From sequence record NC_007021.1: DNA of 64,000 nt. One strand, given 5' to 3'. Below, piece by piece: positions 11,628-51,372 of the stretch. The position numbers and the translations under genes were made by a program. Positions within the stretch are counted from its first letter, which is position 1. Each line of letters begins with the position of its first letter. The DNA is from Staphylococcus phage Twort. The notes beneath the pieces are model-generated. The model worked only from the letters and a program-made list of their open reading frames with translations. It was not told the DNA's origin and did no database searches.

Positions 11628-11658
11628 AACCCTTGTGTATAGGGGGAAGGGAGCTTTT

Positions 11659-14600
11659 ATGAAGTTACGTATAAAAAACCTTTTCACTTATGTTGAATTT
11701 GAGGAGGATGATAAGTATTTAAAGGACATATTTTTAAAACGTGTACATAAAACAATTGGCGCAAGACAACAAGGATTTCAGTTTAGTCCTGCATATAAGA
11801 GAGGTAGTTGGGATGGATACATTGATTTCTATGTTTACGAGGAGGATAAATTCCCCACAGGGCTCCTACATAGAGTAGAGTTATTACTAGGAGAATTACA
11901 ATCAAGATATAACTTCCAATATTCTAAGATTGATGAACGTTCTGAAAGTTTCTTAGCTCCTGAAGATATTGACAAAGAAATTAAATTACTTGATAATAAG
12001 ATAGGTCAGATTACTTTAAGAGAATATCAATATCAAGCTGTGTACGAAAGTTTGGTTAATTTTAATGGCGTATTAAAGATTGCGACTAATGGTGGTAAAT
12101 GTATTTCTATGGATTCTATGATTTTAACTACAGAAGGGTACAAGTCTCTTCAAGAGATTTTTGAAACTCAAGGAGTTAAAGTAGATAATAAAGAAAAAGT
12201 CATAGAATTAAAATATCCATTAATAAATCGTTATGGTGACGTTGAGTACACTAGTCACTTTACTAAGAATGGAGAAAAGCCTACAAAGAGAATAAAAACT
12301 AATAAAGGTATTGAGTTAGTTAATACTTATAATCACCCATTATTAGTTAGAGAAGGTTTTAATCTTATATGGAAAAAAAGTGAAGATATTGAAGTAGGAG
12401 ATATTTTAGTATCTAGAGTAGGAGACCATCAATTTGGTAACAACAATACTGTAGAAAATGAAGAGGAAGCCTATGCATTAGGTTGTATGGTAGCTGACAG
12501 TTATTTAGGTTCTTACAGTCGTTTATCGTTTTCTAACGATAAAAAAGAGATACTAGATAAAGTTTCTAAATTTTGGAATACTTTCAGTAATAAAGAAGTT
12601 TATTATGATACGTATAAAGAATCTAAAGGTATAACTATACACTTACATGACACAAATAAAACTAAAGAATTTCATGATAAATATAAAATTGAATACGGAG
12701 TAGCAAAAGATAAGAAAATACCTAAGTGTATTATGGAATCTCCTGAAAATATTCAATTAGCATTTGTAAGTGGTTACTTAGAATGTGAGTCTAGTATATC
12801 AGAAAAGAACTTAGAAGTTACGAGTGCTTCTAAAGATTTACTAAAAGACTTACAACTTATTCTTTCTAATATAGGGATTGTATCAACTAATAAAGAAAAA
12901 GTAGTTAAAAAATACAAACACAATAAGTATTATAGACTTATAGTTAATAGAAAAGAATTGATTAAATTATTACCTTTATTAAGATTTGAAACACAACAAA
13001 GAAAAAATCAAAAAGAGAACTTCTTATCTAATAATACAAAAATTAAAAGTTCTTATGGAAACACTATAGAAGGGTCACGTTATTTATTAAAAAAATATAG
13101 AGATTCTTTAAATATAGACAAAAAAGAATTTAGTAAGTATCTTTCAAGAGATACTATTACTATTGATAGACTTAGAGAAGTAATTTCCTTATACCCTGAC
13201 GGGGATAAGGAAATTAGAGAACTTTTTGAAAATGTAGTAAATAATAATATTTACTACCAGAAAGTAGAACAAGTATTAGAAGGGGAGATTATACCTACAT
13301 TTGATGTATGTATGCCAAAAACACATAGTTTTATTGCCAACACTATTGTTAATCATAATACAGAATGTGCCAGTGGAATTATAGACCAATTACTACCACA
13401 ACTTGAAAAAGGGGAAACAATAGCTTTTTTCACAGGTTCTACAGAAATCTTTCATCAATCAGCAGATAGATTAAAAGAACGCTTAAATATTCCTATTGGT
13501 AAAATAGGTGCAGGTAAGTTTGATGTTAAACAGGTAAACGTTGTAATGATACCTACATTGAACTCAAATATGAAAGACCCTACAGAAGGATTAAAAGTTA
13601 CACCTAAGCAAAATATTAGTAAAAAGATAGCTAAGGAAGTATTGCCTAAATTTGAAGGTGGCAAGAATCAAAAAAGGTTTATGGGTATGTACTTAAAACA
13701 GTTTGAACCTAAAACTAAAGTAGACCAAAAGGTTAAAGATGAGTTAATTAATATTTACAATACTTCTAAGTCAGACCAAGAGTTACTACTTAACCTTAGA
13801 AAACATAATGTTATCTTCCAAAATATTGCGAAGAGTAAGAATGAAAAGAAATATAATAAGTATCACCAAATGCGTGAATTCTTAGACTCAGTTGCTGTAA
13901 TGATAGTAGATGAGGCGCACCATAGTAAATCTGATTCATGGTATAATAACCTAATGACTTGTGATAATGCACTGTACAGAATAGCTTTGACAGGTTCTAT
14001 TGATACACAAGATGATTTATTGAATATGAGATTAGAAGCATTATTCGGTGAAGTTATTTCTAGAGTATCAAATGAGTTTTTAATAAGTGAAGGGCACTCT
14101 GCTAAGCCTACTATTAATACAATACCTATAATGACACCTAAAGATATAGAAAACCAAAAAGAATATAGGGACGTTTATGATGAAGGGATAACAAATAATG
14201 AATTTAGAAATAAACTTATTGCAAAACTAACAGAAAAGTGGTATAATAAGGACAAAGGTGTTTTAATCATTGTTAACTTTATTACCCATGGGGAAAATAT
14301 ATCTAAATTACTAGAAGAGTTAGGCATAGAACATTTCTTCTTACACGGTGAAGTAGATTCAGAACTACGACAACAAAAATTAAATGATATGAGAAGTGGA
14401 AAGTTAAAAGTTATGATTGCTACAAGTCTCATTGATGAGGGAGTAGACATTAGTGGTATTCATGCACTTATCTTAGGTGCAGGAGGTAAGTCACTAAGAC
14501 AAGTTCTACAGCGTATTGGTAGAGCTTTACGTAAGAAGAAGGATGATAATACAACACAGATATTTGATTTTGAGGATAGAACACATAAATTTTTATATGA

Positions 14601-14673
14601 GCATTTTAAGCAAAGATTATCTATTTATGAAGAAGAAAAGTTTGAAGTAAAAGATGTTACAAGAAAGGGATAG
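11659..14673 (+). CDS. SF2 DEAH-box DNA helicase, intein-containing precursor
   Basis: Motif II MIVDEAHHS, motif III LTGS, motif VI QRIGRALR. The P-loop ATNGGK|...|TE is interrupted by an intein. The likely start is the ATG at 11659 after a GGGGGAAGGGAG RBS; the track ATG at 11635 lies inside the RBS. Confidence 0.8.
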   Translation: MKLRIKNLFTYVEFEEDDKYLKDIFLKRVHKTIGARQQGFQFSPAYKRGSWDGYIDFYVYEEDKFPTGLLHRVELLLGELQSRYNFQYSKIDERSESFLAPEDIDKEIKLLDNKIGQITLREYQYQAVYESLVNFNGVLKIATNGGKCISMDSMILTTEGYKSLQEIFETQGVKVDNKEKVIELKYPLINRYGDVEYTSHFTKNGEKPTKRIKTNKGIELVNTYNHPLLVREGFNLIWKKSEDIEVGDILVSRVGDHQFGNNNTVENEEEAYALGCMVADSYLGSYSRLSFSNDKKEILDKVSKFWNTFSNKEVYYDTYKESKGITIHLHDTNKTKEFHDKYKIEYGVAKDKKIPKCIMESPENIQLAFVSGYLECESSISEKNLEVTSASKDLLKDLQLILSNIGIVSTNKEKVVKKYKHNKYYRLIVNRKELIKLLPLLRFETQQRKNQKENFLSNNTKIKSSYGNTIEGSRYLLKKYRDSLNIDKKEFSKYLSRDTITIDRLREVISLYPDGDKEIRELFENVVNNNIYYQKVEQVLEGEIIPTFDVCMPKTHSFIANTIVNHNTECASGIIDQLLPQLEKGETIAFFTGSTEIFHQSADRLKERLNIPIGKIGAGKFDVKQVNVVMIPTLNSNMKDPTEGLKVTPKQNISKKIAKEVLPKFEGGKNQKRFMGMYLKQFEPKTKVDQKVKDELINIYNTSKSDQELLLNLRKHNVIFQNIAKSKNEKKYNKYHQMREFLDSVAVMIVDEAHHSKSDSWYNNLMTCDNALYRIALTGSIDTQDDLLNMRLEALFGEVISRVSNEFLISEGHSAKPTINTIPIMTPKDIENQKEYRDVYDEGITNNEFRNKLIAKLTEKWYNKDKGVLIIVNFITHGENISKLLEELGIEHFFLHGEVDSELRQQKLNDMRSGKLKVMIATSLIDEGVDISGIHALILGAGGKSLRQVLQRIGRALRKKKDDNTTQIFDFEDRTHKFLYEHFKQRLSIYEEEKFEVKDVTRKG
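12100..13359 (+). mobile_element. intein (420 aa) with LAGLIDADG homing endonuclease domain
   Basis: Begins with Cys (TGT at 12100) directly after GGK of Walker A. Ends IVNHN (AAT CAT AAT at 13351-13359) and is followed by Thr. Intein blocks F/G are TFDVCMPKTHSFIANTIVNHN. Two LAGLIDADG-like motifs, YALGCMVADSYLGS and LAFVSGYLECESS. Confidence 0.75.
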
Positions 14674-24070: not shown

Positions 24071-24463
24071 ATGACAAAAGAGGAAAGACCCATAATTGTA
24101 TACTACAGTGGTACAGGACAAACTAAAAGATTAGTAGATAAAATTAATAATGATTCATTTGAGGTAATGAGAATGAAAACAGGCAATGAGATAGTAGAGC
24201 AACCTTACATTCTTATTACCCCTACTTATATGAAAGGTGAAATTCCTAAACAAGTACAAAAATTTATTAGTAATAATCATGCACCTAAAGAAGTTATTGG
24301 CACAGGAAATAAACAGTGGGGAGAACACTTTTGCGGTGCAAGTAAAAAAATAGCTGAAATGTTTAGTATACCTCTTGTTGCTAAGATTGAACAAGCAGGT
24401 CATTTTAATGAAGTAAATACTATTAAAGAGTATTTTACAACAGAATACAAAGTTAGTTATTAG
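24071..24463 (+). CDS. nrdI: NrdI flavodoxin-like protein
   Basis: IVYYSGTGQTKRL FMN-binding motif. 130 aa, directly upstream of nrdE. Confidence 0.7.
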   Translation: MTKEERPIIVYYSGTGQTKRLVDKINNDSFEVMRMKTGNEIVEQPYILITPTYMKGEIPKQVQKFISNNHAPKEVIGTGNKQWGEHFCGASKKIAEMFSIPLVAKIEQAGHFNEVNTIKEYFTTEYKVSY

Positions 24464-24473
24464 AGGTGAAAAG

Positions 24474-25193
24474 ATGGCAACTTATGGTAAGTGGATTGAC
24501 CTTAATAATGAGGTCACTCAACTAGACGAAAATGGAAAAAATAAACTCTATAAGGACAAAGAAGCCTTAGAAGAGTACTCAAAATATATTGAAAAGAATA
24601 CACGTAATTTTGATAATGAAGTAGAGCGTGTACGTACCTTAACTAAAGAGGGTACTTATGATAAGGTGTTTGATAGTATTCCTGATACTATTATTGAAGA
24701 AATGACAAAGTTAGCTTATAGTTTTAACTTTCAATTTCAGAGCTTTATGGCATGTCAAAAGTTCTATGAATCATATGCTGTGACACAGTATGATAAAGAT
24801 GATAATCCTATTTTTGTAGAAGATTATGAACAACATAATGTACGTGTTGCGCTTTATTTATTTCAAGACGATTATGTTAAAGCTAGAGAAATGTTAATTC
24901 AATTAATGGAACAGACATTACAGCCCGCTACACCAGTATATCTTAACTCAGGGTTAGGTAAACGTGGTGAATTGTCATCTTGTTATTTATTTATTGTAGA
25001 TGATACTATCGAATCTATTAACTTTATTACAGACTCCGTACGACAAGCATCTAAAAATGCAGGAGGTTGTGCAGTAGACTTAACAAGATTACGCCCTAGA
25101 GGAACAGAGGTTAATGGTGTTCCTAATGCTAGTAAGGGTGTAATACCATTTGCAAAAAATATCGAGCAGAGCGTATCATATTTCAACCAGGGT
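24474..25193 (+). CDS. nrdE: ribonucleotide reductase class Ib alpha subunit NrdE, exon 1
   Basis: N-terminal NrdE sequence up to ...SYFNQG. The ORF then runs into an intron; the last codon GGT ends with U (G.U splice site). Confidence 0.75.
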
Positions 25194-25622
25194 AAACAAT
25201 TCTGCCCCCTATATTAGTAATAGTGTAGGTTAAAAAACTTCCTTAATTCATGGGAAATCTCCTTGACTTTTATTATAAATTTTGGTATAGTAAAATGAGA
25301 AGGAGATAATCATGAGCAAGATAACCAATAGCAAAGAAACCCAAAAAAGTACCTAACGCTACTAAAAGTATTTACCACCATATAAAAAGTAAAAGAAGAT
25401 GGAAGTCATTAAATCACTTAATGAATTGGTAATTATCTTGTGCAACGACTAGAGAAAAGATAGTTTATTGTTACAGGCAGTAAATGAAGACTGAGTATCG
25501 TACACTCAAGTGAGTGGAAACAGGAAGTATCCTAGAGTAACGACTAGGATAATGATATAGTCTGAACATTGTAGGTGACTACAAGAAGGTAAGGAGTAAC
25601 GAACCTTATCGTAACATAATTG
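25194..25622 (+). mobile_element. group I intron 1 in nrdE (no ORF)
   Basis: Interrupts the conserved NQxGxRxGA motif. 3' core AAGGTAAGGAGTAACGAACCTTATCGTAACATAATYG is shared with intron 2. Ends with G. Boundaries are +/-3 nt. Confidence 0.65.
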
Positions 25623-26648
25623 GGAAAACGTGAAGGCTCTGCAGTATGTTATTTAAATATATTCCACCCAGATATTCATGAATTTTTAAGTTCTAAAAAA
25701 ATTAATGCTAGTGATAAAGTAAGATTAGACACATTATCTATTGGTGTAACAATACCAAATAAGTTTATGGAATTACTTAAAGAAGATAAATACTACTATA
25801 CATTTAATGTATATGATGTTAAACAAAAATATGGGTTTACATTAAATGAAATAAACATGTCCGAGTATTATGATATATTTGTGAATGATGATGATATTAG
25901 AAAAGAAAAATATTATACAAGAGATATAATGACTGACATTGCAAGAACACAACTAGAGTCAGGATACCCTTATGTTTTCTACATTGATAACGCAAATGAC
26001 AATCACCCTTTGAAGAAACTAGGTAAAGTTCAAATGTCTAATTTATGCTGTGAGGTGACACAGCTACAAGAAGTATCCGACATATTCCCATATTTACAAT
26101 CACATAATGATACTATTGGGAATGATGTTGTGTGTACGTTAGGTTCATTAAATTTAGTGAATGTTGTAGAAAAAGGATTGCTTAAAGAATCCGTAGATAG
26201 TGGTATTCGTTCGTTATCTAAAGTAACGGATTTAATGAACGTTCCATTTTTACCAAGTGTTCAGAAGGCAAACGATGAGCTACGAGCTATAGGTCTTGGA
26301 GCAATGAACTGGCATGGACTTCTAGCAAAGAATATGCTTAGTTATGGTTCTAGGGAATCTCTAGACATTGCTAATAGTTTATTTAGTGCTATTAGATACT
26401 ACTCTATTAAGTCTAGTATGGAACTAGCTAAAGAAACTGGTAAAGTTTTTAAAGGTTTTAAAGAATCAGAATACTATACTGGAGAAGTGTTTAGTTCATA
26501 TATTCAAAAGTCACATGAACCTAGAACTAAAAAAGCTAAAAAAGTACTAGAAAAGGTATATATCCCTACGGAAGAAGACTGGAACTCTTTAAGCAAAGAT
26601 GTAAAAGAGTATGGTATGTACAACGGATACTTAAATAATCTTGCACCT
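25623..26648 (+). CDS. nrdE: NrdE exon 2
   Basis: GKREGSAVCYLNIFHPDIHEFL and NLCCEV active-site region. Ends ...NLAP (cct, U) before intron 2. Confidence 0.75.
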
Positions 26649-27735
26649 TATATATTAGGGCGTGTATAAGAATACATGATAACTCTTTCGAATTGCTGGA
26701 ACACCCTTAGAGCCTAATAAACTACAACGTAACTAGAAATGGTAAGCGTGAATGTTTAAAAATTATTGGGATTGGGCAATCAGCATCTAAGATTCTAAAT
26801 AATTATAATTAAAATAAAGTGTAACAAAGGAAGATATATTATAGAGGAGTTATGGAAAGAAATACCTGGGTTTAATTCATACATGATTAGTAATAAAGGT
26901 CAGGTTTACTCAAGAAAAAGAAATAAGATACTAGCTTTACGAACAGATAAAAATGGGTATAAAAGAATATCTATTTTTAACAATGAAGGTAAAAGAATTC
27001 TATTAGGAGTTCATAAGTTAGTTCTCTTAGGTTTTAAAGGTATTAATACTGAAAAGCCTATACCTCACCATAAGAATAATATTAAAGATGATAACAGATT
27101 AGAAAATTTGGAATGGGTTACAGTTAGTGAAAATACCAAGCATGCATATGATATAGGGGCTTTAAAATCACCTAGGAGAGTTACATGTACTCTTTATTAT
27201 AAAGGAGAACCTTTATCATGCTATGACTCGTTGTTTGACTTAGCTAAGGCTTTAAAAGTAAGTAGAAGTGTAATAGAGAGTCCTAGAAATGGTTTGGTGT
27301 TATCTACTTTTGAAGTAAAAAGAGAACCTACAATACAAGGACTACCTTTAAATAAAGAGATATTTGAGCATAGTTTAATTAAGGGCTTGGGTAATCCTCC
27401 TTTAAAAGTGTATAATGAAGATGAAACCTACTACTTTTTAACTTTAATGGACATAAGTAAGTACTTTAATGAATCATACTCTAAAGTACAACGAGGATAT
27501 TATAAAGGTAAGTGGAAAAGTTATATTATAGAACATATTGATTTTTATGAGTATTACAAACAAACACATTAATTATAATTACAAGAATAAAGTTCAACGA
27601 CTATCCCGTTGCTGGGAGTACACTCAAGTGAGTGGAAGTGGAAGAGGTCTTACTTAAGTAAGATGTGATATAGTCTGGACGTATATGGAAACATATAGAA
27701 GGTAAGGAGTAACGAACCTTATCGTAACATAATCG
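26649..27735 (+). mobile_element. group I intron 2 in nrdE carrying an HNH homing endonuclease ORF
   Basis: Splits the conserved APTxSIS motif (exon 2 ...NLAP | TQSISYV exon 3). The conserved intron 3' core is repeated at 25575-25622 and 27690-27735. Confidence 0.7.
26883..27572 (+). CDS. intron-encoded HNH homing endonuclease
   Basis: HNH motif HHKNNIKDDNRLENLEWVTVSENTKHA. Resembles the I-HmuI/I-BasI class of Bacillus phage intron endonucleases (established knowledge). Confidence 0.75.
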   Translation: MISNKGQVYSRKRNKILALRTDKNGYKRISIFNNEGKRILLGVHKLVLLGFKGINTEKPIPHHKNNIKDDNRLENLEWVTVSENTKHAYDIGALKSPRRVTCTLYYKGEPLSCYDSLFDLAKALKVSRSVIESPRNGLVLSTFEVKREPTIQGLPLNKEIFEHSLIKGLGNPPLKVYNEDETYYFLTLMDISKYFNESYSKVQRGYYKGKWKSYIIEHIDFYEYYKQTH

Positions 27736-28104
27736 ACACAATCCATTTCGTATGTACAAAATGCAACTTCTAGTATTATGCCAGTACCTTCACCTATTGA
27801 AAATAGACGCTATGGTAACATGGACACATACTATCCTATGCCGTTTATGTCACCAATTACACAATTTTTCTACGAGAGTGAAACAGCATATAAATTAGAT
27901 AATAAACGTATTATTAATACAAGTGCGGTGATTCAAAAACACGTAGACCAAGCTATTTCTACTATTCTTTACGTAGAGTCTGAAATACCAACTAATAAAT
28001 TAGTAAGTTTATATTATTATGCTTGGGAAAAAGGTTTAAAATCTTTATACTATACCCGTTCACAAACATTAAAAGTTATTGAGTGTGAATCTTGTAGTGT
28101 ATAA
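27736..28104 (+). CDS. nrdE: NrdE exon 3 (C-terminal, YY tail)
   Basis: In-frame TQSISYVQNATSSIMPVPSPI... ending ...LYYTRS, with the conserved C-terminal tyrosines. Confidence 0.75.
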   Translation, partial: TQSISYVQNATSSIMPVPSPIENRRYGNMDTYYPMPFMSPITQFFYESETAYKLDNKRIINTSAVIQKHVDQAISTILYVESEIPTNKLVSLYYYAWEKGLKSLYYTRSQTLKVIECESCSV

Positions 28105-28119
28105 GAAAGGAAATCAGTA

Positions 28120-29169
28120 ATGGAACTTAAGAGACAAGTAGATAAATACTATAAAGATAAAATTAAAAACTTAGAAGCTGTTAACTGGAACGAGGAAGAT
28201 GAAATGGCTAATAACTTTTGGGAGTTAGCCACAACTTCCTTCTGGTTACCAGAAGACTTTGATATTTCACGAGATGTAAGCTCATGGAATAAATTAACAG
28301 ATATTGAAAAAGATACTTATAAAAAAGTTTTAGCAGGTTTAACAGGGTTAGATACTAAGCAAAGTGTTGAAGGAATGTCATTAATTGCACATCATGAACC
28401 TAGAACAAGATTTGCTCAAGTATACACAGCCTTTGATTTTTATGAATCAATCCATGCTAAGTCCTATAGTCATATTTTTACTACTTTATTATTAAATAAA
28501 GAAACAAATTACTTATTAAATGAGTGGGTAGAACAAGAACCACACCTAAAGAAAAAAGCACAGTATATTGGATATTTTTATGAAAAATTAGAACAGCCTA
28601 ATCCTAGTACATTTGATAGATATATGGCTAAAGTAGCCAGTGCTTTTTTAGAAAGCGCATTATTCTATTCAGGGTTCTATTATCCTCTACTACTATCAGG
28701 TCAAGGGGTTATGGTTCAATCAGGAACTACTATCTACAAGATTACACAAGATGAGGCATATCATGGTGTAGGAGTAGGTTATACCGCACAGTTAGATTAC
28801 CAAGAACTTACAGAAGAAGAGCAGTCTAAAGCTGATGCTCTTATGTACGAATTATTAGAAGTACTATATGAAAATGAAGTATCTTACTCACATATGTTAT
28901 ATGATAAGTTAGGATTAACGGAAGATGTTATTAGATATGTTCAATATAACTTCAATAGAGCTTTAGCTAACTTAGGGTTTGATGATTACTTTAATCCAGA
29001 ACCTTTTAATCCTATTGTAAATAACCAAACTAATGTAGATAAACTTAGTAATGCAGATTTCTTTAGTACAAAAAATGATTATAAACGCTCTATGAATACT
29101 AAAGACCTTAAAGATGAAGATTTTAAGTTTGATGATAAAGAATCTACTTTAGTAGATGAATTTTTATAA
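28120..29169 (+). CDS. nrdF: ribonucleotide reductase class Ib beta subunit NrdF
   Basis: Di-iron ligand motifs FYESIHAKSYSHIF and QDEAYHGV. Confidence 0.8.
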   Translation: MELKRQVDKYYKDKIKNLEAVNWNEEDEMANNFWELATTSFWLPEDFDISRDVSSWNKLTDIEKDTYKKVLAGLTGLDTKQSVEGMSLIAHHEPRTRFAQVYTAFDFYESIHAKSYSHIFTTLLLNKETNYLLNEWVEQEPHLKKKAQYIGYFYEKLEQPNPSTFDRYMAKVASAFLESALFYSGFYYPLLLSGQGVMVQSGTTIYKITQDEAYHGVGVGYTAQLDYQELTEEEQSKADALMYELLEVLYENEVSYSHMLYDKLGLTEDVIRYVQYNFNRALANLGFDDYFNPEPFNPIVNNQTNVDKLSNADFFSTKNDYKRSMNTKDLKDEDFKFDDKESTLVDEFL

Positions 29170-30938: not shown

Positions 30939-31250
30939 ATGGAAGATTTAATTAGTTACTTTTACTCTATGGAAAGTAAGATGTTAAATGGGTGTGAGTT
31001 AAAAACCACTATGATAGAAGACAATAAGGATATTACATTATATTTTAAGGTAAATAAAAATGTAGAGATTATTTATGTAAATCAATACACAGATTCTACT
31101 TTACTAGTACTTGATGTAGAGGCAGGAGCTGAATACGTTACAACTAAAGAAGGACTAGGGGTTTGGTTACATGAGATTACTAGAAACATGTATAATAGAA
31201 ACTACCTTAAAGTCATTGATAAATTATATAGATTAGATTGGAGAGGGTAA
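30939..31250 (+). CDS. hypothetical protein
   Basis: Likely start is ATGGAAGAT after the AGGAGGAGGAGG RBS. The track start at 30894 overlaps the promoter. Confidence 0.4.
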   Translation: MEDLISYFYSMESKMLNGCELKTTMIEDNKDITLYFKVNKNVEIIYVNQYTDSTLLVLDVEAGAEYVTTKEGLGVWLHEITRNMYNRNYLKVIDKLYRLDWRG

Positions 31251-31252
31251 GT

Positions 31253-34200
31253 ATGAAAGCATTAATATTATTCGACCATATTAGGGAAGAACATTACTCA
31301 GTGGTTAACGGTAAACCACAATTTAAGTTACTACAAACACCTAATGGTAAAATATTAAAAAGTATCTTAAGCAAATTTGCAGGTTTAGAACGAACAAAAG
31401 AAGTTAAGAATTATGATATTAATTTCCTTTATAATGCTATCCCACAGCCTATCTATAATGACTATGGTAAAATTATTAAATACAATGATGTAAAACAAAG
31501 TGAAGTTAAACCATACTATGAAAGAATGAATAATATTATTACAGAAAATAAATATGATATTATCATTCCATTAGGTAAACTAGGTGTTAAGTATCTTCTT
31601 AATGTAAGCTCTATTGGTAAAGTAAGAGGTGTACCTACTAAGGTAGATATTGGTACCCATCAAACTTGGGTACTGCCTACGTATAGTATAGAATATACTA
31701 ATGTAAACAAAAATGCGGAGAGACATGTGGTTGCTGATTTAGAACTAGTAGGTAAGTTTGTTAAAAACGGGGAAGATGCGTTTACACCTAAAGAAGTAGA
31801 TTATGAATTAGTAACTAATATTGAACGAGTAAGGGAAATATTTAATAAAGAAGTAAAAAATGACAATAATGATGGTGTAGATATTACCGCATGGGACTTA
31901 GAAACCAACTCATTATCACCAGAGAAAAAGGGAAGTAAACCTTTAGTGTTATCAATGAGTTGGAAGAATGGACAAGGTGTTACAATACCTTTGTATAAAT
32001 CTGATTTTACATGGGAAAATGGACAACAAGATATTGATGAGATACTTGCTATGTTAAAAGAATGGGTAGCTAGTAAAGAAGATATTAAAGTAGCACACAA
32101 TGGGCAGTATGATATTAACTTTTTAATGTCCTCACAAAATTTCACAGAGTTTAATGAACATCAAGATACTAAAGTAGGTTGGTATTTAGCTGTTACACAA
32201 GAAGAGGCGGAATCTTTAAAACTATCTGATATTTCTTATGAAGTTACTGATATGGGTGGGTATGACAAGCCTTTAGAAAATTTTAAAAAATGGTTTATCC
32301 AAGATTTACTTAAGTATTTATCCGATGCTTTAAATGAAAGAAAGAAAGAGAATAAGAAACCTGTTAAAAAAGAGTATGATATAAAGGCTCCTGATTATGA
32401 CTCATGGATTAAGGGTAAATTACAAGAACCTGTAGACTTAGATAATCATGATATAAAGCTAAAGGTGTCTGAAGAAGAAAAAGTATATACTGAGTTAGGA
32501 TTAGTACCAGAAATTCTTAATAAAAATATATTCTTTGAAGACACATTTAAAGAGTTAGTATCTAAATATGATGTTTATATGAATTTATCTTCAGCGTCAA
32601 AAGAATACGTGTTAGATACTGCTATTAATCTTATTAATAAATACAAGAACGTAAAAGATGTAATTAATGATGTAGATGGTAATAGCTTTAACTATGATTG
32701 GATTCCATTAGAACTTATGCATCCCTATGCTAGTGGAGATACTGATGCTTGTAGACGTATATATTGTGATGTTATTAATAAATTAAAAGAGCAGAATAGA
32801 CCTAAGGCTTTAGAATTATTAACTAAGAGTTACCCAAGACTAACAAGAACTCTAGCTAGAATACAATCTAATGGTATGTATACTGATACTGAATATTTAT
32901 ATATGATAGATGATAAATATAGTAATGAATTAGATAAAATAGAACAAAAATTAAGAAGTCATTGGGTTATTAAGGAATTTGAAGATACAAGATATGATTT
33001 ATATATGGCAGGTGTAGAAGAATTTGAAAGTAATCCACCTAAAGAACGTAATAAATCTATAACTCAATATAGAGATAAATTTAAGAATGGTGGTTGGAAA
33101 TTTAAACCAAGTTCAGGGGCACATAAAGGAGAAGTATTATTTTCTATCTTAGGAATATCATTACCTTATGAAAAAGAATTTGTTAAGGATAAACCTTTTA
33201 CCAAAGGAGTAAAAGAGGATAAATTAACTTGGGAAGATTATAAAACAAATAAAAGCACTATTGACTATATTATTGATAATATAGAACTTAAAAAAGATTG
33301 TATAGATGTGGTTGTTCTTATGAAGAAGTATGCTGAATTACAAACAAAAAGAAACTCCTTCACTAAGAAACTTCCTAACCTGGTTAATAAAGAGACTAGT
33401 ACTTTACATGGCAATTTTAATAGTACTGGTACAGCATCGGCTAGGCTAAGTAGTAGTGCTCCTAATTTACAACAATTACCTTCTCACACATCAGATGTTA
33501 ATAAATTTGACTACCATTATCCTGTTAAACGTGCTTTTAAATCTAGATATAAGAATGGTATTATGACAGAGTTAGACTTTAGTGCTATTGAGATGAAAAT
33601 AATAGGACTATATACTAAAGACCCTGAAATGTTAGAATCATTTTTAAAAGGAGAAGATATTCATAAATCAACAGCAAGTATTGTTTATAACAAACCTGTA
33701 GAAGATATAACTGCTGAAGAAAGACAGAACACTAAGAAAGTAAACTTCGGCATCGCATATGGGGAAAGTCCGTTCTCTTTTTCTGGCAAAAATAATATGA
33801 CTGTAGAAGAGGCAGAAGAGATATTTAATAAATATTTTAATACTAAACCTTCCGTAAAAAATTCAATTGATGCTACGCATGATTTTGTACAGAAACATGG
33901 TTATGTAGAGGCTATGCAAGGACACCAACGTTTTATTAGAGATGCTCAAAGCAGTGATAAGAAAAAACGTAATCAAGCCCTTAGACAGTCATTCAATACA
34001 ATAATACAAAGTACAGCTGGGTACCTTACTAATATGGCTTTAACATTTATAGATGATTTTATACAACAAAACAATATAAAATCAAAAATAGTAGCAACAG
34101 TACACGATAGTATTTTAATTGATACCCACCCTGATGATATTTTTATTATTGGTAAAGTATCTAAGCATATTATGGAAAACTTACCATATGATTTTCTATT

Positions 34201-34456
34201 CATGAATCATAATGGAAGTAGCATAAGATACCCTATAGAGGCTGACTTTGAAATAGGTCTTGCGTATAATGATATGGTAGAGTATGATGAGGAAGATATG
34301 AAGACATTTAATAAAGTAGAAAACTACATTAAATATAAAATGTCCCTAAAAACTATTAAGGAATATTTCGAGTCAGGTAAACTTACTGAAGAGCAATACA
34401 AACAAAAAGTAAGTATTGTAGAATCAGAGAAATATAAATACCAACAAATGTCTTGA
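31253..34456 (+). CDS. family A DNA polymerase with 3'-5' exonuclease domain
   Basis: Exo I AWDLETNS, Exo II HNGQYD, Exo III YASGDTD. Pol motif A LDFSAIEMKI, motif B KKVNFGIAYGES, motif C VHDSIL. RBS GGAGAGGG before the ATG at 31253. Confidence 0.85.
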   Translation: MKALILFDHIREEHYSVVNGKPQFKLLQTPNGKILKSILSKFAGLERTKEVKNYDINFLYNAIPQPIYNDYGKIIKYNDVKQSEVKPYYERMNNIITENKYDIIIPLGKLGVKYLLNVSSIGKVRGVPTKVDIGTHQTWVLPTYSIEYTNVNKNAERHVVADLELVGKFVKNGEDAFTPKEVDYELVTNIERVREIFNKEVKNDNNDGVDITAWDLETNSLSPEKKGSKPLVLSMSWKNGQGVTIPLYKSDFTWENGQQDIDEILAMLKEWVASKEDIKVAHNGQYDINFLMSSQNFTEFNEHQDTKVGWYLAVTQEEAESLKLSDISYEVTDMGGYDKPLENFKKWFIQDLLKYLSDALNERKKENKKPVKKEYDIKAPDYDSWIKGKLQEPVDLDNHDIKLKVSEEEKVYTELGLVPEILNKNIFFEDTFKELVSKYDVYMNLSSASKEYVLDTAINLINKYKNVKDVINDVDGNSFNYDWIPLELMHPYASGDTDACRRIYCDVINKLKEQNRPKALELLTKSYPRLTRTLARIQSNGMYTDTEYLYMIDDKYSNELDKIEQKLRSHWVIKEFEDTRYDLYMAGVEEFESNPPKERNKSITQYRDKFKNGGWKFKPSSGAHKGEVLFSILGISLPYEKEFVKDKPFTKGVKEDKLTWEDYKTNKSTIDYIIDNIELKKDCIDVVVLMKKYAELQTKRNSFTKKLPNLVNKETSTLHGNFNSTGTASARLSSSAPNLQQLPSHTSDVNKFDYHYPVKRAFKSRYKNGIMTELDFSAIEMKIIGLYTKDPEMLESFLKGEDIHKSTASIVYNKPVEDITAEERQNTKKVNFGIAYGESPFSFSGKNNMTVEEAEEIFNKYFNTKPSVKNSIDATHDFVQKHGYVEAMQGHQRFIRDAQSSDKKKRNQALRQSFNTIIQSTAGYLTNMALTFIDDFIQQNNIKSKIVATVHDSILIDTHPDDIFIIGKVSKHIMENLPYDFLFMNHNGSSIRYPIEADFEIGLAYNDMVEYDEEDMKTFNKVENYIKYKMSLKTIKEYFESGKLTEEQYKQKVSIVESEKYKYQQMS

Positions 34457-36367: not shown

Positions 36368-36484
36368 TTATACATATATGAGGGGAGTACTTATATTAAT
36401 TTTGACCAACTGAACCCGTACTTTCAAAATAGACTACATCAAAAGTTAATCTTACCAAATGATAAAGAGGTACTATTAAGTCAT

Positions 36485-36730
36485 GTGTTAACACATAGAA
36501 ACTCTGTGAGTCTTTGGTTTACTTACAAGTTAAATAAAGTGAATATTGAGATTGACTATTCACTTCGTAGCGATGCTATATTACACGTACCTGAAATATG
36601 TCTAGGTAATCGAATACTGACTAAGCATATGAAATTCAACAAAATTAGTAGTTTACTACATCATATAGAGTACTCATTAGAGAATTGGGTTGAAGATATA
36701 GACTCTAATGATGTTTTAGAATGGATATAA
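36485..36730 (+). CDS. hypothetical protein
   Basis: 81-aa ORF. Weak. Confidence 0.3.
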   Translation: MLTHRNSVSLWFTYKLNKVNIEIDYSLRSDAILHVPEICLGNRILTKHMKFNKISSLLHHIEYSLENWVEDIDSNDVLEWI

Positions 36731-49497: not shown

Positions 49498-49704
49498 ATG
49501 AAAACCTATACATGCAATAGGGTATCGGCTAGTGTTGAAGAACTTAAACAGTACAAAGATTTCAGGTTATTATTCGGGTTTGATGATGTTGTATTATATT
49601 TACTTAGTGAGCAAGATGAAGCAAAAACATTTAAAATGGAAAAGAAAGAATTAGAAAAAATAGAAAAGAAATATAGTAATGAACCTTTCTTTTCTTACTT
49701 ATAG
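49498..49704 (+). CDS. hypothetical protein
   Basis: 68-aa ORF. Confidence 0.35.
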   Translation: MKTYTCNRVSASVEELKQYKDFRLLFGFDDVVLYLLSEQDEAKTFKMEKKELEKIEKKYSNEPFFSYL

Positions 49705-49800
49705 GAGGGTATTGTAACAGGTAGTAATAATTTATAAAAACTTATAAATTTATTTGCATTTTTGGATAAAGTATGCTATGTTATATTTAGAGGTGATAAT

Positions 49801-49881
49801 ATGGCATATATGTCTATAGGAAAATTTAGTAAAGAGATAGGTGTTACACTCAAACATTACGTAATTGGCAGGGTGAATTAA
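49801..49881 (+). pseudogene. truncated IS607-type tnpA remnant (MerR-like HTH only)
   Basis: MAYMSIGKFSKEIGVTLKHY... resembles the N-terminal HTH of IS607-family serine-recombinase TnpA (SIxExAKxxGVxxxTLRRW). A second frame continues TLRNWQGEL, then stops. No catalytic domain. Confidence 0.4.
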
Positions 49882-49884
49882 CTA

Positions 49885-50994
49885 ATGATAACGAAAAAAG
49901 TTAGACTTAAACCTACTAAACAACAGGAGTTAAAATTACGTAAATCAGCAGATATAGCACGATTTATATATAATTGGACTTTAGCAAAACAACAAGAAAA
50001 TTATAAACAAGGCAATAAATTTATACAAGATTCTGTGTTAAGAAAAGAAATAACACAATTAAAGAAAACTGAAGAGTTTAGATGGTTAAATGAAGTAAGT
50101 AATAATATTCCTAAGCAAGCAGTTAAAGATGCTTGTAATGCTTACAAAAGATTTTTTAAAAAACAATCTGGTTTTCCTAAATTTAAATCTAAAAAGAAAA
50201 CAAGACCTAGTTTCTATAATGATACACAAAAACTAAAAGTAAAAGAAAAATCAGTATTATTAGAAAAAGTGGGTTGGGTTAGAACATCTGAACAATTACC
50301 TGTAGGTACTAAGTACTACAATCCTAGAATCACTTTTGATGGTAAATATTGGTATATAAGTGTTTCTATTGAAGAAGAAAATAAATATGAAGAACTAACA
50401 AACGAATCTTTAGGTATTGATTTAGGAATAAAAGAATTAGCCGTATGCTCTGATGGAAGTATTTATGAAAATATTAACAAAACAATAAGAGTTAAAAAAC
50501 TAGAAAAACGATTACGTAGATTGCAACGTAAGGTATCTCGTAAATACCAAAATAATAAAGAAGGGAGTACCTTTGTCAAAACTTGCAATATTATAAAACT
50601 TGAAAAACAAATTAAACTCTTACAACGAAGATTGTCTAACATTCGTAAAAACTATTTACATCAAACAACAACTTCTATAGTGAAAACCAAACCTAGAAGA
50701 ATTGTTATAGAAGATTTGAATGTAAGTGGTATGATGAAGAATAGACACTTAGCTAAAGCAATACAAAAACAAGGATTCTATGAGTTCCGTAAACAACTAG
50801 AATATAAGTGTGGAAGAAAAGGTATAGAACTTGTTATTGCAGATAGATTCTTTCCTTCTAGTAAAACATGCTCTAATTGTGGTAACATCCACAAAAACTT
50901 AAAACTATCAGATAGAATATTTAAGTGTGACTGTGGTTTTAGTATTGATAGAGACCTTAATGCTAGTATTAATTTAGCTAATTATAATATTTAG
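49885..50994 (+). CDS. tnpB: TnpB (IS200/IS605-IS607 family OrfB, RuvC-like with C-terminal zinc finger)
   Basis: C-terminal SKTCSNCGNIHKNLKLSDRIFKCDCGFSIDRDLNASINL, typical TnpB CxxC...CxxC plus the RuvC-III motif DxNA(A/S)xNI. The N-terminus MITKKVRLKPTKQQ is typical. Confidence 0.8.
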   Translation: MITKKVRLKPTKQQELKLRKSADIARFIYNWTLAKQQENYKQGNKFIQDSVLRKEITQLKKTEEFRWLNEVSNNIPKQAVKDACNAYKRFFKKQSGFPKFKSKKKTRPSFYNDTQKLKVKEKSVLLEKVGWVRTSEQLPVGTKYYNPRITFDGKYWYISVSIEEENKYEELTNESLGIDLGIKELAVCSDGSIYENINKTIRVKKLEKRLRRLQRKVSRKYQNNKEGSTFVKTCNIIKLEKQIKLLQRRLSNIRKNYLHQTTTSIVKTKPRRIVIEDLNVSGMMKNRHLAKAIQKQGFYEFRKQLEYKCGRKGIELVIADRFFPSSKTCSNCGNIHKNLKLSDRIFKCDCGFSIDRDLNASINLANYNI

Positions 50995-51171
50995 ATTATC
51001 ACTAATAAGATACTAAATATATGTACCATTCGTTGTATGGGAATTTAAGCCTTTGGAGTATCATACAAACTTGAGTAGAGTAAATGAATATAGTAATTTA
51101 CTCAAAAGGGGATACGTTGAAAAAGGAATATAATTTATAAAGTTTTATAAATTTTTGACAACGGGAATCAT

Positions 51172-51372
51172 ATGTTAACTATTCTAGTACTCATTTGGGT
51201 ATTACTATTTTTAACTGTTTTATTTAATATTAAAGTAGGGAATATTTTTATTCTAGGTGATTATGTAGAATTTAAAGACAAATTTGTGGCAGTATCGTTC
51301 TTATTATTTTTATTGCTGTCTATGTTAATTGGTTTAATAATTATTCTTAAAGGAGTGTATGGACAATGGTAA
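51172..51372 (+). CDS. small membrane protein (2 TM)
   Basis: 66 aa, two hydrophobic helices. Confidence 0.4.
   Translation: MLTILVLIWVLLFLTVLFNIKVGNIFILGDYVEFKDKFVAVSFLLFLLLSMLIGLIIILKGVYGQW

Follow-up and report, generated by a model that had tools for sequence, protein, structure and literature searches.

We analyzed 64,000 nucleotides of the genome of Staphylococcus phage Twort (NC_007021.1; this whole stretch is the window) and describe a helicase gene in it that is interrupted in frame by an insert with the features of an intein. An open reading frame (ORF) spans 11635..14673 on the plus strand and is open throughout, with no break in frame in the ORF list. The likely start of the helicase precursor is ATG 11659 rather than GTG 11635, because ATG 11659 is preceded by a Shine-Dalgarno-like run (GGGGGAAGGGAG), a promoter-like site (TTGACT-17-TAAAAT) and, upstream, the terminator of a tail-fibre-like gene, and because it agrees with the start annotated in phage Quidividi. 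Computed from this start, the precursor has 1004 amino acids and a mass of 116.5 kDa. The joined exteins come to 584 amino acids (67.6 kDa) and the intein to 420 amino acids (48.9 kDa), close to the sizes of about 68 and 48 kDa and to the helicase of about 590 amino acids that an earlier note on this DNA had predicted. By rough arithmetic, the chance of a 420-codon stop-free frame in DNA of 27% G+C is about 1e-16.

The insert splits the Walker A motif of the helicase, ATNGGK/TE, right after GGK (a slash marks an insertion point throughout). The codon for its first residue, Cys1 (TGT), is at 12100-12102, directly after ATNGGK. The insert terminates with IVNHN at 13359 and the next residue is Thr. 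The translation bears out the earlier note on each of these residues, and the split has the same boundaries as the intein annotated in Quidividi (MH321490). The extent that the note gave, 12100-13359 or 420 amino acids, is exact to the base in translation and, within a 4-base ambiguity, agrees with the break in the alignment with the nearest record, phage vB_SpsM-DH2 (OM373548; DH2 below).

Removal of the insert in silico restores a DEAH helicase, as the note had proposed. The ResIII model scores 27.8 bits with the insert in place and 53.1 bits on the joined exteins. For the DEAD family the corresponding scores are 11.7 and 25.4 bits, the latter slightly below the 26-bit cut-off, and its match on the joined exteins starts at residue 122, upstream of the restored Walker A motif. 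Helicase_C reaches 62.9 bits on the joined exteins and, like ResIII and SWI2_SNF2, exceeds its cut-off. The motifs occur in the order ATNGGK/T (I), VDEAHH (II), LTGS (III), V and QRIGRALR (VI). Motifs I, II (DExH) and VI, together with two RecA-like domains, place the protein among the superfamily 2 (SF2) helicases. The UvsW_N model (PF21241) gives 23.9 bits, slightly below its cut-off of 25.3, and relatives are labelled uvsW by their depositors.

Table 1. Coordinates of the interrupted helicase gene, of its parts and of other features in the window
Feature	Position in window	Strand	Description
Helicase precursor gene	11659..14673	+	Stop included; 1004 amino acids, UvsW-like SF2 DEAH helicase split by intein
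N-extein	11659..12099	+	147 amino acids; terminates in first part of Walker A (ATNGGK)
Intein	12100..13359	+	420 amino acids; profile models, family-invariant residues, PDB profile matches, clean insertion relative to DH2
Hint splicing domain of intein			Blocks A and B, about residues 1-115; blocks F and G, about residues 386-420
Nested LAGLIDADG endonuclease			Intein residues about 116-300, then helical accessory region, about 301-385
LAGLIDADG motif 1, ALGCMVADS	12478..12504	+	Intein residues 127-135; putative catalytic Asp133
LAGLIDADG motif 2, VSGYLECES	12766..12792	+	Intein residues 223-231; putative catalytic Glu230
C-extein	13360..14673	+	437 amino acids and stop; first residue Thr+1, completing Walker A (GK/T)
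Presumed homing site, left half	12070..12099		30/30 bases as in DH2 empty site; abuts 13360-13389 in intein-free allele
Presumed homing site, right half	13360..13389		29/30 bases as in DH2 empty site
nrdE exons	about 24474-25168, 25635-26629, 27745 onward		Two intervening insertions
HNH_3/NUMOD4 ORF	26883..27572		In second nrdE insertion
Match to AF485080 (Twort nrdE/I-TwoI)	24340-28162		99.6% over full 3826 bp
DNA polymerase gene	31238..34456		Holds 1.16-kb insertion in DH2
TnpB-like ORF	49885..50994	+	369 amino acids; HTH_OrfB_IS605, OrfB_IS605 and Cas12f1-like TNB
RAGATH-18 RNA (Rfam)	51050-51128	+	67.6 bits; directly after TnpB-like ORF
Block with TnpB-like ORF	49703-51185		1.48 kb; missing from DH2
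Junctions of DH2 insertions	17594/17657, 19087/19098, 26014/26061, 28400/28472, 33419/33464, 41887/42099		0.4-1.3 kb each in DH2, absent from window
Extra DNA relative to DH2	25168-25635, 26629-27745, 36374-36724, 49703-51185		Present in window

Splicing and endonuclease domains of the insert

We assign the insert, with high confidence, to the class 1 inteins; it has a LAGLIDADG homing endonuclease nested within it and separates Lys from Thr in the Walker A motif (AxxGxGK/T) of a UvsW-like SF2 DEAH helicase. A hidden Markov model (HMM) search for Hint and LAGLIDADG domains, which the earlier note had suggested, gave four models above cut-off, with E-values of 1e-15 to 1e-18 for the intein. Intein_splicing (PF14890) scores 58.3 bits (cut-off 35.8) and covers insert residues 8-420, intein_Nterm (TIGR01445) scores 30.9 bits (24.5), intein_Cterm (TIGR01443) 18.0 bits (15.6), and LAGLIDADG_3 (PF14528) 67.4 bits (22.5) over intein residues 219-291. 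The best of the long NCBIfam matches are to models of intein-containing GyrA, RFC and DnaB, and are restricted to the intein portions of those models.

The C-terminal intein blocks that the note had read, TFDVCMPKTHSFIANTIVNHN, and its two LAGLIDADG-like motifs are present and conserved in relatives. Across seven phage helicase inteins the splicing residues Cys1, Thr76, His79, Asp402, His409, His419 and Asn420 are invariant. The TxxH of block B is T76-Y-N-H79 (NTYNHPLL), and blocks F (Asp402, His409) and G (His419-Asn420) read PTFDVCMPKTHSFIANTIVNHN/T, with Thr as the +1 residue. In the endonuclease domain, Gly128 and Ala132 of motif 1, Gly225, Tyr226, Glu228 and Glu230 of motif 2, and Lys203 and Lys205 are likewise invariant among the seven; position 133 is Asp, or Glu in phage BSP10. 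Class 3 splicing chemistry (WCT triplet) is ruled out by the presence of Cys1 and by a block B that has no Trp.

As a single-sequence query, the intein matches solved VMA inteins and the Mxe GyrA intein. We built a profile from the seven phage helicase inteins (38-94% identical) and searched it against PDB. It matches sixteen sequences, and all the named ones are intein entries: Mxe GyrA (4.8e-15), VMA 7qsu and 7qss (about 1e-14) and PI-PfuI (2e-12), with PI-PkoII and the DnaB and RadA inteins also among them. The Mxe GyrA mini-intein (1am2) resembles the Twort intein in the Hint halves, and the archaeal VMA inteins and PI-PfuI (1dq3) resemble it in the LAGLIDADG domain; all are distant and come from other host proteins and organisms. 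Motif 1 aligns to the first LAGLIDADG helix of 7qss and 7qsu, and the endonuclease domain as a whole aligns to those of the VMA inteins and PI-PfuI. We take these solved comparison inteins to be class 1, the Mxe GyrA intein likewise having Thr at +1.

Several observations weigh against the assignment. LAGLIDADG motif 1 reads ADS and the canonical DG is absent. LAGLIDADG_3 covers the second half-domain only, as one stretch. An AlphaFold model of the intein, which rested on a 7-row alignment of mostly fragments, is too poor to confirm the fold (predicted local distance difference test score, pLDDT, 46; predicted template modelling score, pTM, 0.28). Splicing and DNA cleavage are predicted activities of this intein. 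To these we add the negative search for a co-conversion tract and the weakness of the Rfam negatives for an intron, both described below.

Empty site, distribution and divergence

DH2 encodes a 584-amino acid helicase with an uninterrupted KIATNGGKTECASG. The earlier note would have been refuted by extein halves that fail to align contiguously to intact homologous helicases; here the joined exteins align to the DH2 helicase without a gap at 97.4% amino acid identity. At the nucleotide level the N-extein is 91.8% and the C-extein 89.6% identical to DH2. The BLAST alignment is interrupted at 12099/13356 (DH2 91400/91397), corresponding to a clean 1260-bp insertion with a 4-base ambiguity. Around the junction, 59 of 60 nucleotides are the same in the DH2 empty site, which reads GTATTAAAGATTGCGACTAATGGTGGTAAAACAGAATGCGCCAGTGGAATTATAGACCAA. 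We propose the two flanking half-sites (Table 1) as a candidate endonuclease recognition site.

By megablast with the helicase, 284 Staphylococcus-type phage records match, only 10 of which cover at least 80% of the intein-containing gene. A tblastn search with the intein finds 124 records, 86 of them at full length. The full-length matches lie nearly all within helicase-annotated features of Herelleviridae that infect Staphylococcus, Mammaliicoccus, Enterococcus, Listeria and Bacillus, and several of these features are already annotated as intein-containing DNA helicase. No exact copy of the helicase precursor was found in an assembly index. A protein homology search returned only 6 matches, fragmentary and metagenomic, and intein-bearing helicase fragments thus exist elsewhere.

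In the alignment, the insertion point (GGK/C...HN/TE) is identical in the Herelleviridae helicase inteins. An intein at this site is annotated in Quidividi, S25-3 and BSP10, and is also present in Enterococcus and Listeria phages. The Sepunavirus phages Quidividi and phiIPLA-C1C carry it in the same gene and at the same length as Twort, 420 amino acids. In the Quidividi record the gene is an "intein-containing DNA helicase precursor", with a mat_peptide "intein" that starts at CISMD, as the Twort intein does, and stops before TEIAS. The Kayvirus phages S25-3 and S25-4, Enterococcus phage 156, Listeria phage LMTA-148 and the Bacillus phages BSP10 and phiAGATE share the same Walker A point, block residues and LAGLIDADG motifs. 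These other Herelleviridae helicase inteins have 418-432 amino acids and are 38-64% identical to that of Twort.

Quidividi and Twort belong to different genera and have diverged host exteins, but nearly the same intein. The inteins are 94.6% identical in nucleotides and 93.8% in amino acids, differing at 26 amino acids that are concentrated in the accessory region (301-385), whereas the N-exteins are 73.5% identical in nucleotides and the exteins 74% in amino acids. We estimated synonymous divergence (dS) and the nonsynonymous to synonymous ratio (omega) by the Nei-Gojobori method. Relative to Quidividi, dS is 0.18 for the intein and 1.88 for the N-extein; even to DH2, the nearest intein-free relative, extein dS is 0.53-0.62, above that intein value. 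Because intein dS is so far below extein dS, the common ancestor of the two intein copies is much younger than that of the genes that host them. Such a contrast is the signature expected of recent horizontal homing between co-infecting phages. Intein omega relative to Quidividi is 0.09 in Hint-N, 0.11 in the endonuclease, 0.35 in the accessory region and 0.11 in Hint-C. Judged by these ratios, purifying selection has acted on the endonuclease domain ever since the Twort and Quidividi copies split. A Quidividi-like co-conversion tract was sought in the extein flanks and none was seen; the flanks follow DH2, so a Quidividi-like direct donor is left unsupported.

The relatives also include variant forms. 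Phage vB_ScaM-V1SC04 (OP297178, locus L007, 1769-4783) has a 422-amino acid intein, 45% identical to that of Twort, that lies three residues upstream (ATN/C...QHN/SGKTE) with Ser at +1. This is therefore a second insertion point in the helicase P-loop, served by a related intein. The helicase intein copy of phage PSU6 has diverged to a similar degree as that of V1SC04. Golestan-100 (LC647030, locus L008, 2060-4618) and Fi4S2 (PV037056, locus L009, 2060-4624) carry 267-amino acid inteins at the same site as Twort. Both retain Cys1, TYNHP and INHN/TE, but neither has the first LAGLIDADG motif or the accessory region; they look like stages of the homing cycle in which the endonuclease has degenerated. 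Besides its P-loop intein, Bacillus phage BSP10 (MF422185, locus L006, 1760-5696) has a second intein in helicase motif II (MIADE/CLVEG...ALTHN/CHHSK). In the records of vB_SepM_BE07, BE08 and BE09 (MT596504-MT596506) the feature in which the helicase intein falls carries the label "gyrA: DNA gyrase subunit A", probably a mis-annotation that arose because the intein resembles the intein-containing GyrA model.

Alternative explanations and proposed mechanism

One alternative is excision from RNA, the insert being an intron of group I or II whose endonuclease ORF is in frame. Twort is rich in group I introns, two of them in nrdE within the window. Neither the whole window nor the insert gave an intron in Rfam scans, a weak negative for the helicase given that Rfam also misses the group I introns of nrdE. 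The earlier note had favored protein over RNA splicing, and this is supported by 420 codons in frame with the host gene on both sides, by the exact boundaries at Cys and at His-Asn before Thr, and by Hint-domain HMMs at both ends. Intein blocks A, B, F and G would be absent from a LAGLIDADG ORF housed in an intron, and the boundaries agree with the empty site to the codon. We consider an intron extremely improbable. An equally slight chance attaches to a Hint-like insertion or fusion that does not splice (of bacterial intein-like, BIL, or pretoxin-HINT type), or to an assembly chimera, with the long protein as the final product. A PT-HINT match does occur at 17.5 bits, below its cut-off of 27.7. 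The insert nevertheless disrupts a Walker A motif that is essential to ATPase activity, and it has the terminal Asn and +1 nucleophile of true inteins. The exteins show strong purifying selection relative to DH2 (omega 0.016-0.04) despite the split P-loop, and would therefore belong to a functional, hence spliced, helicase; this argues that splicing of the Twort helicase intein works. More than 80 phage genomes, sequenced independently of one another, share this architecture, which rules out a chimera.

A competing view that deserves more weight, and that we still regard as unlikely, accepts the splicing and questions the mobility: the endonuclease would be dead, and the intein a fixed, vertically inherited and immobile passenger late in the homing cycle. 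The ADS of motif 1 in place of DG fits this view, as do the lack of a co-conversion tract in the flanks and the decay known in relatives, exemplified by Golestan-100 and Fi4S2. The Twort copy, however, is full length and keeps Asp133, Glu230 and the conserved Lys203 and Lys205, and its endonuclease domain has the low omega given above. An intein dS about ten-fold below that of the host gene, between a Twortvirus and a Sepunavirus, requires recent lateral movement.

For a splicing intein with a nested homing endonuclease, we predict the following series of steps. The 116.5-kDa precursor would be translated with its P-loop broken. Cys1 (Cys148 in the precursor) would undergo an N-S acyl shift, and the hydroxyl of Thr+1 (Thr568) would attack the thioester to give a branched intermediate by trans-esterification. 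Asn420 (Asn567 in the precursor) would then cyclise, freeing the 48.9-kDa intein, and an O-N shift would rebuild the Lys-Thr bond (GK-T), allowing ATP binding by an active 67.6-kDa helicase. In a mixed infection, the free intein may cleave an intein-less helicase allele around ...AATGGTGGTAAA/ACAGAATGCGCC..., and recombinational repair off the intein-bearing genome would copy the intein in (homing). These are the steps established for class 1 inteins and LAGLIDADG homing, projected here onto the Twort intein.

The intein might also act as a post-translational switch, its splicing rate gating the activity of the UvsW-like helicase during infection. It could, for example, be sensitive to redox state or temperature through Cys1 and Cys404 of block F. 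Other inteins located in P-loops have been proposed to act in this way (PMC4760082, PMC6195587). The only pointer to it in Twort is the insertion site; Cys404 is not conserved among the aligned helicase inteins, and we find a switch function improbable.

Other candidate mobile elements and implications

The window contains further candidate mobile elements. A TnpB-like ORF is followed directly by an RNA matching RAGATH-18, which may be an omega-RNA-like partner of the TnpB-like protein. The block that holds both is missing from DH2; about 60 records of Staphylococcus myophages have it at 80-90% identity, under the annotation "transposase". Its content looks like a TnpB and guide-RNA-type mobile element in a lytic phage. 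The nrdE gene is divided by two insertions, the second of which holds an HNH_3/NUMOD4 ORF. The match to the deposited Twort nrdE/I-TwoI sequence (Table 1) makes it most probable that the two insertions are the group I introns published for Twort. Rfam detects no intron family in the nrdE region even at E <= 1, a sensitivity gap. DH2 (loci L010 and L011) carries insertions absent from the window at six junctions, with one of 1.16 kb inside the DNA polymerase gene, and the window has extra DNA in four places. Together these differences form a mosaic of mobile insertions, as is typical among Twort-like phages.

The Twort helicase intein is already known; both GenBank annotations and several papers mention inteins in the helicase P-loop of Twort-like phages (Herelleviridae). 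A passage in one paper reports a Hint domain in the Twort helicase gene (PMC5526547), and a passage in another notes intein domains in Twort (PMC5618024); the original report is credited to Kwan et al. 2005. A helicase intein is described in Quidividi, Terranova and Twillingate (PMC6597688), and P-loops are recurrent intein insertion points (PMC4760082). The VMA intein structures 7qss and 7qsu are those of Beyer and Iwai 2022 (PMC8966425). The intein in the window is most probably the same element already reported for the Twort helicase. Our modest addition is the finding of a 94.6%-identical intein in helicases that are about 74% identical and belong to different Staphylococcus phage genera, with an empty site in the closest relative.

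For annotation, the gene is best described as a single helicase precursor that contains an intein and gives two mature products, and the label "gyrA" is unsuitable. For the biology of these phages, Twort, Quidividi and DH2 provide a natural trio of donor, recipient and empty site for intein homing in staphylococcal phages.

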